A stretch of 64,000 nucleotides of DNA. It comes from an uncultured candidatus Porisulfidus sp. GTDB taxonomy: Bacteria > Pseudomonadota > Gammaproteobacteria > Poriferisulfidales > Poriferisulfidaceae. Shown piece after piece: positions 7,676 through 41,611 of this stretch. A program made the position numbers and the translations under genes. The notes beneath the pieces were generated by a model. That model ran no database searches. It was not told the DNA's origin and saw only the letters and a list, made by a program, of their open reading frames with translations. The DNA lies in assembly GCA_965204575.1 (NCBI GenBank), contig OZ241993.1, forward strand, positions 800,001 to 864,000, given 5' to 3'. The first letter of the stretch is position 1, and the number at the start of each line of letters is the position of its first letter.

Positions 7676-7933
7676 TCATGCGGCATCATGTTTCCCGATC
7701 CATTCACGAAGAGCGAGGTCGATCCGCGTTTGCCACCCCCGGCCCCCGGCCTTGAAGTGATCGATTACGTCTGGCGACAGACGAATGGTGGTGGATACCT
7801 TCGGTTTTTCAAGAGGGGGCCGACCCCGGCGAACAGGCACCTTGGCAAATTTTTCCGGCCAATCGCCCTGAGAAAGATCCGGGGCGTCATCCGGGTCAAA
7901 ATCTTGGACTGTAGAGTGCTTTTTCCCGCTCAT
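7676..7933 (-). CDS. brnA: BrnA-family antitoxin
   Basis: DPDDAP, RRGRPP...PK...TIRL.PDV...FKA.G.GWQTRI. Confidence 0.88.
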   Translation of the reverse strand: MSGKKHSTVQDFDPDDAPDLSQGDWPEKFAKVPVRRGRPPLEKPKVSTTIRLSPDVIDHFKAGGRGWQTRIDLALREWIGKHDAA

Positions 7934-8165
7934 TTGCCTTCCTCATGCTGATGATGCGATATACATCATTTCTTGGCGTCCAGACCAGAATCACCATTCT
8001 TTCGTCAAGAAATCCAATAGTGATGAAACGGTCTTCGCCATAGTTTCTCCGGTCATCTTCATCAGTCAGAGTGGTACCTTCGAATACCTCTCCGGCCCGA
8101 GCCATGTCCAGCCCTCTCGCTTCAAGAGTGGCTGCACGTTTTTCCTCGTCGAACTCAATCGACAT
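7896..8165 (-). CDS. brnT: BrnT-family ribonuclease toxin
   Basis: EFDEEK......RGLD, YGEDRFITIG, VWT.R....RIISMRKAN.RE. Confidence 0.9.
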   Translation of the reverse strand: MSIEFDEEKRAATLEARGLDMARAGEVFEGTTLTDEDDRRNYGEDRFITIGFLDERMVILVWTPRNDVYRIISMRKANEREKALYSPRF

Positions 8166-8211: not shown

Positions 8212-8889
8212 TCACTTCGGTGCCGCCGCAACGGGCGCGATGCTCTTATGGGGCAGGAACAGGCCGCAGCCCAGCAACCGTTCGGGGCCAAGACCTTGGC
8301 GCTGGAGATCCACGGATTGCTCGGGCTCAAGCCCGTCCAGCATCAGGCTACGGCAGTGCAGGGCTCCCCCGCCCCCGGCGACGAGATGGGTGCGGCCCGC
8401 CATCATGCGCGGGGCTTCAATGCCGATTTCCTTCAGTTGCTCGGCGCACAGGCCCAGGAATTCCTCCTCGTCCTCGTTTTCGATCGCGACGTAGCGGGCA
8501 AAAACCGTGCTTTGAGCCTGCAGCGGATGCAGGCGGTTGTCCTCGATGACCATCGGATCCGGGCCGATCTGCAAGGTGACTCCGGACAACTCTCGCGCCT
8601 CCTCAAGCCGGTGGTAGGGCAGCCGCAGGGCCAGCCGGGTGCGTTTCGACAATGGCAGGTAGGTCGTCGGATCTTCCGGCCGGATCCAGCCGTTTCCGGA
8701 TTCGGCTCCATGGATCGTGTGAACGCCAGCAAGTGGTTCGTCCGCAAGCCAGGGCCAGACCGCGAGAAGCGCCGAGCGCAGGTCGCGGGCATGGTCGACC
8801 GGCAAGGCCTTGCAGCGGATTCGGTAGCGGACATCCACCACGTCCGGCGCGACGGCGGGAGGAGGCGTATCCGATTCCTGCCAGTGCAC
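8212..8889 (-). CDS. cas6: Cas6 RAMP-superfamily protein (type I-MYXAN Cas6/Cmx6-like), orphan
   Basis: N-terminal LPVDH, GVHTIHGAESGNGW, LSKRTRL.LRLP, and C-terminal Gly-rich loop LQRQGLGPERLLGCGLFLP typical of Cas6. Confidence 0.82.
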   Translation of the reverse strand: MHWQESDTPPPAVAPDVVDVRYRIRCKALPVDHARDLRSALLAVWPWLADEPLAGVHTIHGAESGNGWIRPEDPTTYLPLSKRTRLALRLPYHRLEEARELSGVTLQIGPDPMVIEDNRLHPLQAQSTVFARYVAIENEDEEEFLGLCAEQLKEIGIEAPRMMAGRTHLVAGGGGALHCRSLMLDGLEPEQSVDLQRQGLGPERLLGCGLFLPHKSIAPVAAAPK

Positions 8890-8891
8890 GG

Positions 8892-9083
8892 TCAGGGACG
8901 GCGGGCCGTGAAGAAGCTTTCCAACTGCTCCTCCCAGTCTTCCGGGGTGTCGGAAAACGGAGGCCGGACGTCCAGGCTGAGGAACCGTTCTCCCGCGTCG
9001 ATGCGTGCCGCAATCAGGTCTTTGAGGCCCTCGAAGGAATCCAGGTCATAGTGGGCGATCAGGAGTTCGCTCAGGGTCAGCAT
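8892..9083 (-). CDS. Small acidic hypothetical protein (63 aa)
   Basis: Fills the gap between the dioxygenase (7-nt overlap) and cas6 (2-nt gap); motif DVRPPFSDTPEDWEEQLE. Confidence 0.78.
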   Translation of the reverse strand: MLTLSELLIAHYDLDSFEGLKDLIAARIDAGERFLSLDVRPPFSDTPEDWEEQLESFFTARRP

Positions 9084-9955
9084 GGGCGGCGGGCGCGATC
9101 CGTGTAGCGGGTCCGGTACAGCAGGCGGGGGTGATCGGCAGAGTCGGTGTAGGCACTCCGGCAGTGCAATACATTATGCGCGATCAACCCGCATCCCGCC
9201 TCCAGGCGCAGGGGGTGTTTCGCCTGCGGCAGGGTTTCCAGTAGCTCTTGGATCCGGGTTCGGGCCGCCTCGGTTTCGGTGTGCCAGCGGATGTGGATGG
9301 CGCGTTCGGTATAGCGCATGTACAGGTGTTCGCCGTCGACCGAAAAGACCGGCCCGCTGAATTCGGCCCGGCGCTCCCGGCCGTCTTCGGCGTGGGCGGG
9401 GACCGTGAAGGCCTCGGGGTGAGCCAACGCCCGGATCAGGTCCGGGTCTTCGTCGCGCAGGGCGATGTACAGCAGGCGCGGGTCAAGCAGTCGGTTGACG
9501 CCGCCTTCGAGCGCCGGCTGGATGCAGTGCAGGATGAAACTGCGGATTTTCTGTGTCTCCGGCTGGTAATACCCGTCGGTGTGCCAGCGCAGCCGGTGGC
9601 GGGTGTACGGGATGAATCGCCCGGCCGTGTCTTCCCGTGCCGTCAACCGTGCCACTCCGTCCGGTTCGGCGCACTGGTGGTGGTCGAGATGCTCGAGTCC
9701 CAGTTGCTTGCCGAAGGCCAGCAGGTCGCGGGGTTCGGGGATCCGGTCCGTGACGTAGCAGGCGGCCCCGCCAGCATGTAGGCGCGAGATCAAGGCGCTG
9801 ATTTCCTGCGCATCCAACTTGGCAGGATTTTGGATTTCGACCGGTGTGAAATCCACCTCGCTTTCGTCGAGGACCTGTTTCCGCCACACACGGTAAGCCT
9901 CTGTGCGGGCGAGATCCCACCAGTCGGGGGGAGGATGGGAGGGAACGTCAGTCAA
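9077..9955 (-). CDS. TauD/TfdA-family Fe(II)/2-oxoglutarate dioxygenase
   Basis: HxD motif in WHTDGYY, LHC..PA.EGG.N.L.D, distal His in NVLHCR; probable TTG start at 9955 overlapping the aminotransferase stop. Confidence 0.85.
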   Translation of the reverse strand: MTDVPSHPPPDWWDLARTEAYRVWRKQVLDESEVDFTPVEIQNPAKLDAQEISALISRLHAGGAACYVTDRIPEPRDLLAFGKQLGLEHLDHHQCAEPDGVARLTAREDTAGRFIPYTRHRLRWHTDGYYQPETQKIRSFILHCIQPALEGGVNRLLDPRLLYIALRDEDPDLIRALAHPEAFTVPAHAEDGRERRAEFSGPVFSVDGEHLYMRYTERAIHIRWHTETEAARTRIQELLETLPQAKHPLRLEAGCGLIAHNVLHCRSAYTDSADHPRLLYRTRYTDRARRPC

Positions 9956-11129
9956 GAAGATCGCGCAGGCGCGAGATGCCTTCCTCGAGAGTCGGCATGT
10001 CGGTGGCGAACGAGACCCGGATGTGGTCGGCCGAGCCGAACGGGAGCCCGGGCACGACGGCAAGGCGCAACTGGTCGAGCAGCAGGGTGGCGAACTCGAT
10101 GTCGGAGGGGCATTCCAGCCGGCGCATGGCTTCGCCGACGTCCGGCAGGCAGTAGAACGCGCCGTCGGGCTTCAGGCAGGTGATTCCGGGCAGTTCGTTG
10201 AGCGCCGTCACGATGTAGTTGCGGCGCTGCTCGAAGGCGGCCACCATGTCGGGCACCGAGGACTGGTCTTCCAGCAACGCGGCACAGGCGGCGGCCTGGG
10301 CGATCGAGGAGGGGTTGGAAGTGCTCTGCGACTGGACGGTCAGCATGGCGTCGATGATGTCCTTGGGCCCGGCCGCATAGCCGATCCGCCAGCCGGTCAT
10401 GGCATAGGCCTTGGAGACGCCGTTGATGAGGAGGACGCGGTCGCTCAGGTCGGGCGCGACCTGGATCAGGTTGCAGAACGGCACGCCGTCGAACCGGATC
10501 AGTTCGTAGATGTCGTCGGACGCGACTCGGACGTGAGGGTGTGCGCGCAGCACCCGGGCAAAGCCCTCGAGATCCTCCCGGTGCAGCATGGCACCGCAGG
10601 GGTTGGACGGGCTGTTGAGGATCAGCAGTTTCGTGCGCGGGCTGATTGCCTGGTCCAGTTGTTCGGCAGTGGGGCGGAAATTCTGCTTCAGGGTGGTCGG
10701 CAGGAACACCGGCTCGCCGCCCGCGAGCCGCACCATGTCGGGATAAGAGGCCCAGTAGGGGACCGGAATGATGACCTCGTCGCCGGGGTCGATCACGGCC
10801 TGCAGGCAGTTGTACAGGACCTGCTTCGCGCCGGCGCTCACCAGGATCTGGTCGGCCTCGAAGTGCAGCTTGTTGTCGCGGTGGAACTTGTGCGCGATGG
10901 CGGCGCGCAGGGCCGGCGTGCCGCCGACCGAGGTGTAGCGGGTCTGGCCGTCGCGGATGGCCTGGACCGCCGCATCGCAGATGTTTTCCGGGGTGTCGAA
11001 GTCCGGTTCTCCGGCACTCCAATCAATGATTTCCTGGCCCGCCGCGCGTAGGCGGCGCGCAGTCGCGGAGACGGCCAGCGTTGCGGAAGGCTCGCAACGT
11101 CCGACCCGTTTCGAAAGGGCGCGTTCCAT
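9948..11129 (-). CDS. Class I/II PLP-dependent (aspartate-type) aminotransferase
   Basis: GEPDFDTP, LNSPSNPCG, SDDIYE, SKAYAMTGWRIGY; start set at MERALS; divergent from uvrB. Confidence 0.93.
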   Translation of the reverse strand: MERALSKRVGRCEPSATLAVSATARRLRAAGQEIIDWSAGEPDFDTPENICDAAVQAIRDGQTRYTSVGGTPALRAAIAHKFHRDNKLHFEADQILVSAGAKQVLYNCLQAVIDPGDEVIIPVPYWASYPDMVRLAGGEPVFLPTTLKQNFRPTAEQLDQAISPRTKLLILNSPSNPCGAMLHREDLEGFARVLRAHPHVRVASDDIYELIRFDGVPFCNLIQVAPDLSDRVLLINGVSKAYAMTGWRIGYAAGPKDIIDAMLTVQSQSTSNPSSIAQAAACAALLEDQSSVPDMVAAFEQRRNYIVTALNELPGITCLKPDGAFYCLPDVGEAMRRLECPSDIEFATLLLDQLRLAVVPGLPFGSADHIRVSFATDMPTLEEGISRLRDLLD

Positions 11130-13345: not shown

Positions 13346-13813
13346 TCATACTTCAACTCCTTTACCTTGTTGTATGGCACTCCGGAACTGCATCGGATCA
13401 TCGATAATAGGGGTTGTCAGTGATCCAATTCCCGTCCCTCGACATGACACTTTCCCATAGCCCAGTATCCGGCCCGTTACACCTTGCTTCAAGTTTACGC
13501 CCTCAATTCGAGTTAATGCGATCTCATTGGTAGTTCTCGCAATTAAGCCTGTCTTATAAACCACTCGACTACTCGTAATCACGATTTCGGTAGTGCGCTT
13601 CGTAATCCACATTAGAATTCCTGCAAAGGTTAGTAGAGAGCCAAATCCCCACAACACAAGCATTTGTGAGGAATCTATCAGTATTGTGAGAAACAAAGGA
13701 ATTCCAACAAATAAACACATCACAATGTTCAGGGTGTAGGTCCAGTGAAACTTAGCTTCATACGCAATTGTTTCATTTTTTGCAAGAGTGGATTCCACAT
13801 ATTTTCTAGGCAT
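13346..13813 (-). CDS. Membrane-anchored bacterial PH-domain protein
   Basis: Two TM segments then TEIVITSSRVVYKTGLI.R...EI....IEGV..KQG..GRILGYG; AT-rich DNA. Confidence 0.75.
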   Translation of the reverse strand: MPRKYVESTLAKNETIAYEAKFHWTYTLNIVMCLFVGIPLFLTILIDSSQMLVLWGFGSLLTFAGILMWITKRTTEIVITSSRVVYKTGLIARTTNEIALTRIEGVNLKQGVTGRILGYGKVSCRGTGIGSLTTPIIDDPMQFRSAIQQGKGVEV

Positions 13814-13930
13814 CTTCTCAGTCCCGAATGTAACTGCCCAAAATGCTCGGGCATCAGTATGCTAGGGCTATGTAACTAGACGCCACTTTATTACATTTTT
13901 ACTTTTGATTCATACTGCAAACTTTTGATG

Positions 13931-14761
13931 CTAGTATGGATCAGTTCCACCATAAGGCAGCATACTAACAAGTTCTTGTGGAGCTTCAACCATATAGCGT
14001 AGCAATAACATAACAAAAAGAGACCATGGCTCCGTAGCTTCATAACAGCATAGCCTACTACCGGGAGTAGGGAGGAGATCAATTGATTGATTTGATGGTA
14101 TGCCACCCACAATTTCGCCGGAAACATTGAGCAACATGTTTTGGTTACTTGTCGCTTTGAGGGCGGCTACAGTGTCAATCCTCTCATGGATCGCTAGATT
14201 TTTGGTTGACACAATGCGCTCATATACGGGTATTAGACGTTCTATTTTTATACTTTCAGCAGCGATGCAGAAGAATATGGACTGCCAATTATTGTGGCTA
14301 CTCCCAAACAAAGTATGAGTTGTATTTATAGGGCTAGGCTGTAATACATAAGCTTTTCGATGTAGTTTTTTGTAACTCAAACATTTGTCAAAACTATTCT
14401 TAAATTCAAATGCATTGAGGCTGGCTTTAATTTCTCCACAGGCATATGTTGCCTCTACAGGAAACATTTGAGCACCGGTGCCCGTAAAAATGCGGGGAGT
14501 ATTCAGCCTGTTGTACAGGATGATATCCATCTGTCTTGACACACCACCAATCGAATCTACAACAAACCCATTTGACACACCCACTTGTTCTGGCAATACC
14601 TCTTCCAATTGAGATCGAAATTGTTGCTCGATTAATGCTCCTGTCTCGCCTGAGTGGGGTATGGAACTCCGAATTTGATCAATAGCAGCGGTTAACTTGT
14701 TTTGAGTGGTGGATAACACGTTGCGGTATAGCGATATGGTCATTTGTAAAAACCCCGACAA
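13931..14761 (-). CDS. DUF6602-like protein, putative PD-(D/E)xK nuclease fold
   Basis: H.GETG...E, GFVVDS.G..SRQMDIILY, FPVEA..A.GEIK; AT-rich DNA. Confidence 0.68.
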   Translation of the reverse strand: MSGFLQMTISLYRNVLSTTQNKLTAAIDQIRSSIPHSGETGALIEQQFRSQLEEVLPEQVGVSNGFVVDSIGGVSRQMDIILYNRLNTPRIFTGTGAQMFPVEATYACGEIKASLNAFEFKNSFDKCLSYKKLHRKAYVLQPSPINTTHTLFGSSHNNWQSIFFCIAAESIKIERLIPVYERIVSTKNLAIHERIDTVAALKATSNQNMLLNVSGEIVGGIPSNQSIDLLPTPGSRLCCYEATEPWSLFVMLLLRYMVEAPQELVSMLPYGGTDPY

Positions 14762-41309: not shown

Positions 41310-41407
41310 GTCGGCTCCAATCCGGGGTTGAAGCAGACACAGGGAAACGGCACGATCGGGCGACCGCGCGTCATCCCGATCGCCCACCGCAACCGTGACA
41401 ATTCAGA

Positions 41408-41575
41408 ATGAGGCCGGTCTCCGGGCTTGCGAGGGTTACCCGGACACTTCCTTCCCAGGCCGAGGCCCAGTGGCTTGCGTGTCCCTCTCGCCTACCGTTG
41501 CGGGGGCAGCGCCGGCTTTGCGTTTGCGCACCGGCTTCCCTGTTTCATCTGTCGGACAGACACCCCATCCCGCAG
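41408..41575 (-). promoter_or_regulatory. Cobalamin riboswitch
   Basis: Minus strand AACAGGGAAGCCGGTG...GCCGGCGCTGCCCCCGCAACGGTA...GCCACTG...GGGAAGG...AAGCCCGGAGACCGGCC (B12-box). Confidence 0.92.
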
Positions 41576-41611
41576 GGTGGGGCAGTGTAACACGCGGGAA
41601 AGGGAGAAGTG

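Follow-up and report, generated by a model that had tools for sequence, protein, structure and literature searches.

A Cas6-like protein from a CRISPR-independent clade, encoded with a TauD-family dioxygenase and a 63-residue protein, is linked to the reverse Dsr genes of Gammaproteobacteria

The stretch of DNA analyzed here, hereafter the window, comprises 64,000 nucleotides from an uncultured Candidatus Porisulfidus species (contig OZ241993.1, positions 800,001 to 864,000). The genome to which it belongs is available as a single contig of 1,816,663 bases and is 98.75% complete. The window contains a compact cassette of three genes for a TauD-family dioxygenase, a small acidic protein named p63 and a Cas6-like protein, together with an aminotransferase gene that overlaps the cassette. 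In related bacteria, homologs of the cassette stand opposite the dsr genes of the oxidative (reverse) Dsr sulfur-oxidation pathway. The four genes of the window are as follows.

9948..11129, minus strand: class I/II aminotransferase, aspartate-aminotransferase-like (PF00155, E-value 1.9e-76)
9077..9955, minus strand: Fe(II)/2-oxoglutarate dioxygenase of the TauD/TfdA family, 292 residues (PF02668, E-value 1.8e-19)
8892..9083, minus strand: p63, acidic protein of 63 residues, isoelectric point (pI) 4.3, no family model match
8212..8889, minus strand: Cas6-like protein, 225 residues, GTG start, assigned to a dsr-linked clade of PF09559 (E-value 7.2e-54)

A first-pass annotation, made by a model from the letters of the window, had described four co-oriented genes joined by overlaps or a 2-nt gap, and reading the junctions from the sequence confirms this. 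The aminotransferase stop codon overlaps the TTG start of tauD, the tauD stop codon and the ATG of p63 overlap in ATGCTGA, and 2 nt separate the p63 stop codon from the GTG of cas6. The longest open reading frame of the dioxygenase extends to 10063; the TTG at 9955 is the likeliest start, since the resulting 292 residues match the lengths of the homologs. For the aminotransferase, the best NCBIfam model is NF004769 (aspartate transaminase) with 466 bits, which is under the cut-off of 617. The GC content of the cassette region is 0.63–0.66, similar to that of its flanks, in agreement with the host-like composition reported in the same annotation.

The Cas6-like protein scores 183.1 bits against PF09559 (cut-off 26.7), covering model positions 1–191, and the search against TIGR02807 proposed in the first-pass annotation places it above the cut-off as well (112.2 bits against 98.85). 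An AlphaFold 2 (AF2) model built on 60 homologs has a predicted local distance difference test score (pLDDT) of 85.8. Comparison of this model with the PDB by Foldseek returned 8fcu_B and 8fcj_B as the top matches, with template modeling (TM) scores of 0.73–0.78, and a probability of 1.00 to many Cas6 chains; both top matches are Cas6 chains from a CRISPR-associated transposon of type I-B. The model supports the double ferredoxin-like RAMP fold, and the product is a genuine Cas6-family RAMP protein. The intact glycine-rich loop and N-terminal histidine noted earlier are borne out by the alignments: H33 is conserved in 100% of 60 dsr-type and 61 CRISPR-type sequences, and the C-terminal loop G199–F211, GLGxxRxxGCGxF, is invariant. 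The histidine after the first strand is the catalytic histidine in characterized Cas6 enzymes. Besides H33 and the loop, D32, R89 and Q196 are common to both groups of sequences.

The protein is alike in family (PF09559, TIGR02807) and in fold to the Cas6/Cmx6 proteins of type I-B or 'I-MYXAN' CRISPR-Cas systems, and it shares with them the Asp-His pair after strand 1, R89, Q196 and the glycine-rich loop. However, it differs from them in its separate clade, an insertion, additional conserved residues and a near-neutral pI, and its partner is p63 and its neighborhood dsrA instead of cas genes. The insertion, at residues 57–71, carries the invariant motif HGAESGNGWxRP, including W68, R70 and P71, and is found in the dsr clade only. 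This clade also adds C26, H57 and H60, as well as the basic residues R83, R85, R94, R132, H168, R180, H214 and K215, and its members are about 30 residues longer than the CRISPR-type proteins. In a maximum-likelihood tree, 30 dsr-type and 31 CRISPR-type sequences, labeled according to the query that found each of them, are split on one branch with support of 100/100; genomic context was verified for two fetched loci on the CRISPR side and for the loci-derived rows on the dsr side. One relative possesses two PF09559 genes. One of them lies inside a true type I CRISPR locus that encodes Cas3, Cas7, Cas5 and a fused Cas4-Cas1 and has an array with eight or more repeats, and the other stands with p63 beside dsrAB. 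In a class genome negative for dsrA, the PF09559 gene is located inside a Cas3-Cas8b-Cas7 locus with 21 repeats. On this sequence evidence, the Cas6-like gene appears to belong to a distinct, CRISPR-independent clade of PF09559.

The PADLOC Cas6 model matches and the name of the NCBI model, type I-MYXAN Cas6/Cmx6, would fit a CRISPR-Cas remnant, a Cas6 serving an array elsewhere in the genome or a component of some other defense system. We consider this explanation extremely unlikely, as the complete genome is without an array and without a match to any other Cas model tested. Models for Cas1, Cas2, Cas3-HD, Cas5d and DevR/Cas7, which detect these families in well-known control genomes, have no match across the whole genome. 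Likewise, a k-mer scan for regularly spaced repeats, which recovers the true arrays of two control CRISPR loci (L041 and L138), revealed no repeat-spacer array in the 1.82 Mb, and the repeats of the two control arrays have nothing within 9 substitutions in this genome. Three array candidates from the k-mer scan proved to be tandem repeats within coding sequence. The absence of arrays and other cas genes that the first-pass annotation reported for 64 kb therefore extends to all 1,816,663 bases, and neither of the marks of a functional type I CRISPR-Cas system, an effector or adaptation cas gene and an array, is found genome-wide. On the cassette itself, PADLOC matches Cas6 models only, with no match for the partner proteins, and viral contigs scanned with the Cas6-like alignment yielded no relative. 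Furthermore, the clade is separate from the CRISPR-linked proteins and conserved with dsr across the class, and the genome with a real CRISPR locus uses a second, different PF09559 gene for it. The earlier judgment that this is not a decaying CRISPR locus also stands: of the 61 relatives, 50 carry PF09559, some of them with genomes as small as 0.7–1.2 Mb, and all 50 matches are free of internal stops.

Comparison of larger neighborhoods places the cassette beside sulfur-oxidation genes. Outside the genus of the window, it is divergent from the conserved gene row of the reverse dissimilatory sulfite reductase cluster, which begins with dsrA and encodes the sulfur-oxidizing enzyme DsrAB; Pfam identifies the row as dsrA, dsrB, dsrE, dsrF, dsrH, dsrC, dsrM and dsrK, and the gene after cas6 in the related loci (dsrC2) encodes a further DsrC-family protein (PF04358, E-value 5.8e-32). 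The ancestral order appears to be dsrKMCHFEBA <-> tauD(dsrQ)-p63-(x235)-cas6-dsrC2, in which x235 is a 235-residue protein, and the setting divergent from dsrA is, by the gene orders compared, the dominant one and probably ancestral. A link of cas6, TauD and small-protein genes to sulfur-oxidizing gammaproteobacteria had been put forward in the first-pass annotation; it proved right and much stronger than stated. Of the 61 relatives, 48 have dsrA above the cut-off, and those without PF09559 are all without dsrA above the cut-off, including all three genomes of genus g10. Two relatives, G014 and G047 (73–76% complete), are PF09559-positive without dsrA above the cut-off, one with a truncated dsrA at a contig end and the other 73% complete.

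The composition of the cassette is itself conserved. When the window proteins were compared by tblastn with 30 loci from other genomes, the order tauD-p63-cas6 was found in 23; four loci, all of one genus, have p63-cas6 without an adjacent tauD, one has tauD-cas6 without p63, one contains fragments only and one is cut by a contig end. A p63 profile scan with one genome per species gave 580 loci, of which the best 80 were analyzed. Fourteen of these 80 are from the genus of the window, Candidatus Porisulfidus among them, and carry the cassette with no dsr gene in the flanks examined. In the 66 loci from other genera, dsrA is divergent upstream in 50, and in the other 16 the sequence breaks off within 2.6 kb upstream of p63; tauD is present in 60, with five of the six misses cut by the sequence end, and cas6 is present in 60, with four misses cut and two in which p63 runs directly to dsrC2. 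The neighborhood conservation that the first-pass annotation proposed to check thus holds for tauD, p63 and cas6. The aminotransferase accompanies them in this genus only. Loci bearing p63 include Thioalkalivibrio, Thiohalophilus, Thiotrichales and Ectothiorhodospiraceae, and the module is present in a record of Thioalkalivibrio sulfidiphilus (L105), a cultivable gammaproteobacterial sulfur oxidizer.

The same association is evident across the class, from which 401 evenly sampled genomes were scored. Of these, 125 have PF09559 (one genome flagged as unpublished is counted here) and 124 have dsrA; 118 have both, seven have PF09559 only and six have dsrA only, counts that describe a pattern among mutually related genomes and do not constitute a statistical test. 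Both genes are on one contig in 93 of the 118 genomes and within 4.6 kb of each other in 87 of the 93, and all 87 pairs are divergent; the six distant same-contig cases include the three genomes of the window's genus. In 107 of the 400 genomes that could be scored for p63 (one could not), p63 was found, in 106 of the 107 together with PF09559. Where the two are on the same contig, p63 is upstream of the PF09559 gene, on the same strand and within 1.2 kb in 97 of 99 genomes, being directly adjacent in 50 of the 97 and separated by a gap of 0.7–1.2 kb in the other 47. In seven of the 87 genomes, the gap between dsrA and cas6 is just 0.68–0.97 kb, too short for tauD, and two of these seven that were fetched lack tauD, p63 and dsrC2. 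The retention of the Cas6-like gene alone in these two genomes indicates that no other member of the divergent unit is as constant.

In the genome of the window, dsrABEFHCMK occupies 47.4–53.5 kb and dsrC2, still divergent, is located at 45.6 kb, whereas the cassette is found at 808–810 kb, approximately 760 kb from dsr. The three genes tauD, p63 and cas6 appear to have moved away from dsr as one translationally coupled unit, and their joint movement with the overlaps kept argues that the three work as a unit. Genes for an AbiEi-antitoxin-like protein and a helix-turn-helix (HigA-like) protein are situated between dsrC2 and dsrA, at the former site of the cassette (45.6–47.4 kb; L127:5574-7369), which suggests that the displacement involved mobile toxin-antitoxin genes. 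Homologs of other genes of the cluster (c14, c19, a second 2-oxoglutarate oxygenase, c15 and x235) are scattered on the same chromosome. The cluster also broke up a second time, independently: in G202 and G368, two genomes of one family in the class sample, distances of 76 kb to 0.9 Mb on a single contig separate dsrA, p63 and the Cas6-like gene.

The new site of the cassette in this genus is between the aminotransferase gene, which it overlaps, and rpsF, and this placement is what could suggest a Cas6 domesticated for general processing of messenger or noncoding RNA in a housekeeping context, with the aminotransferase as a partner. However, the aminotransferase gene and rpsF adjoin the cassette solely within this genus, and elsewhere the cassette is at dsrA. 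Moreover, only seven of the 125 PF09559-positive class genomes are without dsrA, one of those checked is a true CRISPR locus, and the gene was lost alongside dsr in genus g10. A general housekeeping role is, consequently, very unlikely in our estimation. The aminotransferase is, from the gene orders, outside the conserved module, so the four-gene unit of the first-pass annotation does not persist beyond the genus, and the housekeeping setting that it took as a clue gives way to an ancestral setting divergent from dsrA, from which the cassette was translocated here. Of its overall interpretation, the domesticated, CRISPR-independent Cas6 remains, and the housekeeping context is replaced by that of a lineage-wide companion of the reverse Dsr genes, displaced in this genus.

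The dioxygenase scores 71.1 bits against PF02668 (cut-off 27). The HxD...H iron triad (H125, D127 and H264) and the 2-oxoglutarate-binding arginine are in place, so that the Fe/2-oxoglutarate site is intact; the triad, R266 and R277 show no variation among 20 homologs. The best-scoring characterized relatives are TmpA, gamma-butyrobetaine hydroxylase (BBOX) and trimethyllysine hydroxylase (TMLD), with which it has the HxD...H iron site in common; however, its scores of 23–39 bits against cut-offs of 268–415 place it outside those enzyme families. According to the relevant passage of Loffler et al. 2020 (PMC7596348), Lenk et al. 2012 gave the name dsrQ to a tauD-like gene whose transcription diverges from that of dsrA. 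In the passage its function is given as unknown, with release of sulfite from sulfonates as a speculation, and it is said to occur in most of the aerobic chemotrophic sulfur oxidizers of Lenk et al. 2012. A list in a 2017 preprint likewise has the entry 'DsrQ / DsrU (unknown functions)'. The window dioxygenase is also of the TauD family, and its homologs are divergent upstream of dsrA in the related loci, although in its own genome some 760 kb separate it from dsrA; the position divergent and directly upstream of dsrA is thus not the one found here (dsrA at 47.4 kb, dioxygenase at 809 kb). By family and by position in the relatives, the window dioxygenase appears to correspond to dsrQ.

The published speculation would make the cassette a device for O2-dependent release of sulfite from a sulfonate by DsrQ, with p63 and the Cas6-like protein as auxiliary subunits. 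TauD-family membership and the intact Fe/2-oxoglutarate site are in keeping with such a role, as is the presence of dsrQ in most of the aerobic chemotrophic sulfur oxidizers studied, as stated in the passage cited above (PMC7596348). The seven short dsrA-cas6 gaps among 87 are also listed on this side, with the two fetched genomes having kept cas6 without tauD and p63. However, the best matches of the enzyme are TmpA, BBOX and TMLD rather than taurine dioxygenase, all far under the cut-offs, and the Cas6-like gene tracks dsrA more widely than tauD does. In addition, we know of no sulfonate enzyme with a RAMP partner. The sulfonate explanation is, in our view, decidedly improbable.

p63 has no Pfam or NCBIfam match at E ≤ 1 and no PADLOC match. 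Its family comprises 138 representative clusters, nearly all of 60–100 residues, with the highly conserved motif GE.F...D.(R/K)P.F.DTP..WE..LE..F. The AF2 model (pLDDT 88.3) displays three helices around a conserved loop, and a fold search of the PDB gave no match (best E-value 4.8). Two apparent fusions of p63, matches of 1802 and 283 residues, were unrelated repeat proteins, and no true fusion was found. Automatic cluster names ('sulfur relay protein DsrC family') would make p63 a relative of DsrC; this was rejected on an hhalign probability of 0.2% and the lack of a Pfam or NCBIfam match.

The gene for x235 is located between p63 and cas6 in eight examined loci with a gap (L094:2795-3502; L131-L134, L083, L108 and L117), and a gap of this size separates p63 from cas6 in about half of the p63-positive class genomes. 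Its atlas matches are 'hypothetical protein' clusters, TPR-like leads score below 0.9, and no known family was assigned; the genome of the window keeps a copy, 38% identical, at C1:1293998-1294540. The product of dsrC2 belongs to the DsrC/TusE family, yet this paralog is without both functional cysteines of the family and ends in a conserved ...ESRRKGGY. After cas6, approximately 40 related loci (e.g., L037:8735-10867) have a run consisting of dsrC2, genes for proteins of 68 and 106 residues, a PiuC-like 2-oxoglutarate-Fe(II) oxygenase gene on the other strand and a gene for a 184-residue protein, with no family match except for the DsrC paralog and the oxygenase. In the genome of the window, the genes of this run are scattered at 45.6, 116.6, 246.4, 255.6 and 257.3 kb.

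The explanation that we favor, to which we would give roughly even chances, is that the Cas6-like clade is an RNA-based accessory of the oxidative (reverse) Dsr sulfur-oxidation cluster in Gammaproteobacteria. The Cas6-like protein would still bind, and perhaps cut, structured RNA; the likeliest target would be a transcript of the dsr regulon, e.g., the dsrA leader, and the action on RNA would adjust Dsr expression post-transcriptionally. DsrQ, which depends on O2 and 2-oxoglutarate, and the acidic p63 would be modulating partners. Continued recognition of structured RNA is suggested by the retention of the histidine and the glycine-rich loop without arrays and by the gain of conserved arginines. 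The fixed place opposite dsrA points to dsr-regulon transcripts as the targets, and the translational coupling together with the joint relocation points to DsrQ and p63 as working partners of the Cas6-like protein. In many lineages, the dsrA leader contains a hairpin 40–57 nt before the start codon, with sequences that differ among lineages (L032-L127, L140-L153), which is possibly an RNA element.

Several observations weigh against an RNA-based role. The searches for an RNA target yielded none. The dsrA-leader hairpins are not universal and are weak or absent in some lineages, including the genus of the window, in whose dsrA leader a promoter-like region is strongly conserved and the only stem is one of 4–5 bp around the ribosome-binding site. 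Rfam searches at gathering thresholds, covering the window and three related loci, returned tRNAs and a cobalamin riboswitch, all distant from the cassette, and nothing else. The spacer between cas6 and dsrC2 is without a universal hairpin across lineages; it contains lineage-specific A/T-rich motifs that resemble promoter or operator sites. The dsr-type proteins have a median pI of 6.0 (60 sequences), a near-neutral value and an atypical charge for Cas6, and the CRISPR-type protein of the relative with two PF09559 genes has a pI of 10.1. C26, H57 and H60 and the inserted loop beside H33 could represent a remodeled, non-RNA active site, and the maintenance of the module in small symbiont genomes fits an enzymatic or assembly role equally well. 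Lastly, in a phylum-wide sample of 301 genomes, dsrA occurs in 56 and PF09559 in two, both within the class, and none of the 54 dsrA-positive genomes outside the class has PF09559. The Cas6-like protein is therefore not required by DsrAB generally, and the dsr link appears, from the genomes sampled, to be a feature of this class rather than of DsrAB as such.

Some of these points converge on an explanation in which the Cas6 fold was kept and the RNA function was lost, so that the protein would be a protein-, metal- or sulfur-binding subunit that acts, with DsrQ, p63 and the cysteine-less DsrC2, on Dsr proteins. Possible roles include maturation, repair, sulfur handling or control of DsrAB through a DsrC-like plug. 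Next to H33 are the HGAESGNGWxRP insertion and three invariant residues, C26, H57 and H60, that are specific to the clade; the pI is near neutral or acidic, and a cysteine-less DsrC paralog (...ESRRKGGY) directly follows cas6. The module is also retained in genomes of 0.7–1.2 Mb, a size at which regulators are usually shed. However, H33 and the entire glycine-rich loop, the RNA-binding and catalytic signatures of the Cas6 family, are invariant, the dsr clade has gained extra conserved arginines, and neither a fusion nor another direct sign of a protein partner was found. Loss of the RNA function is, in light of both sets of features, a tentative possibility that we hold to be somewhat unlikely.

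Within the favored explanation of an RNA-based accessory, a more specific proposal is that the Cas6-like protein, DsrQ and p63 constitute an oxygen-responsive post-transcriptional switch that matches reverse Dsr expression to the electron acceptor. The target would be a hairpin in a dsr-regulon mRNA, bound or cleaved by the Cas6-like protein, and hydroxylation, or p63 as a nucleic-acid-like competitor, would set the activity of this protein. In this specific form the proposal is speculative, and we deem it rather improbable.

A full-text literature search, with Lenk et al. 2012 and its supplements outside its scope, gave no paper in which Cas6 or p63 is connected with dsr. The genes for p63 and the Cas6-like protein, which come after dsrQ, receive no mention in the passages on dsrQ cited above, and the few papers with both Cas6 and dsr terms treat ordinary CRISPR loci in the passages concerned. 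As far as this literature extends, the link between the dioxygenase and dsr is already known, and the links of the Cas6-like protein and p63 are apparently undescribed. The observations suggest that a defense protein was recruited into energy metabolism; if true, this would provide CRISPR biology with a clear case of a Cas6 leaving immunity for core energy metabolism, in a form kept with its signature residues in approximately one third of the gammaproteobacterial genera sampled, among them symbionts with genomes of 1 Mb. In sulfur microbiology, little is known of how the oxidative Dsr pathway is regulated or of its accessory factors, and conserved, unstudied proteins near dsrAB, i.e., the Cas6-like protein, p63, x235, the cysteine-less DsrC and several small proteins, are now apparent. 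The proteins of the module are small and soluble.

Some additional features of the loci are worth recording. In several lineages (L062, L063, L067, L075, L081, L087, L102, L114 and L120), the motif GGTTTAAT..GCGCCC.TT.ATATT precedes dsrC2; the spacer motif may be a promoter or operator that gives dsrC2 its own control. In the window, a BrnT toxin/BrnA antitoxin pair is encoded between cas6 and rpsF (7676-8165, minus strand; PF04365, E-value 1.9e-23; PF14384, E-value 4.2e-20), and it represents a local insertion, given that a congener has just ~260 bp at that place. The cobalamin riboswitch (RF00174, 105.5 bits) is located at 41395-41582 on the minus strand. A low-GC stretch at 13346-14761, next to uvrB, encodes a PH-domain protein and a DUF6602 protein with a GC content at third codon positions of ~0.4, compared with ~0.8 in neighboring genes, and is probably acquired DNA.

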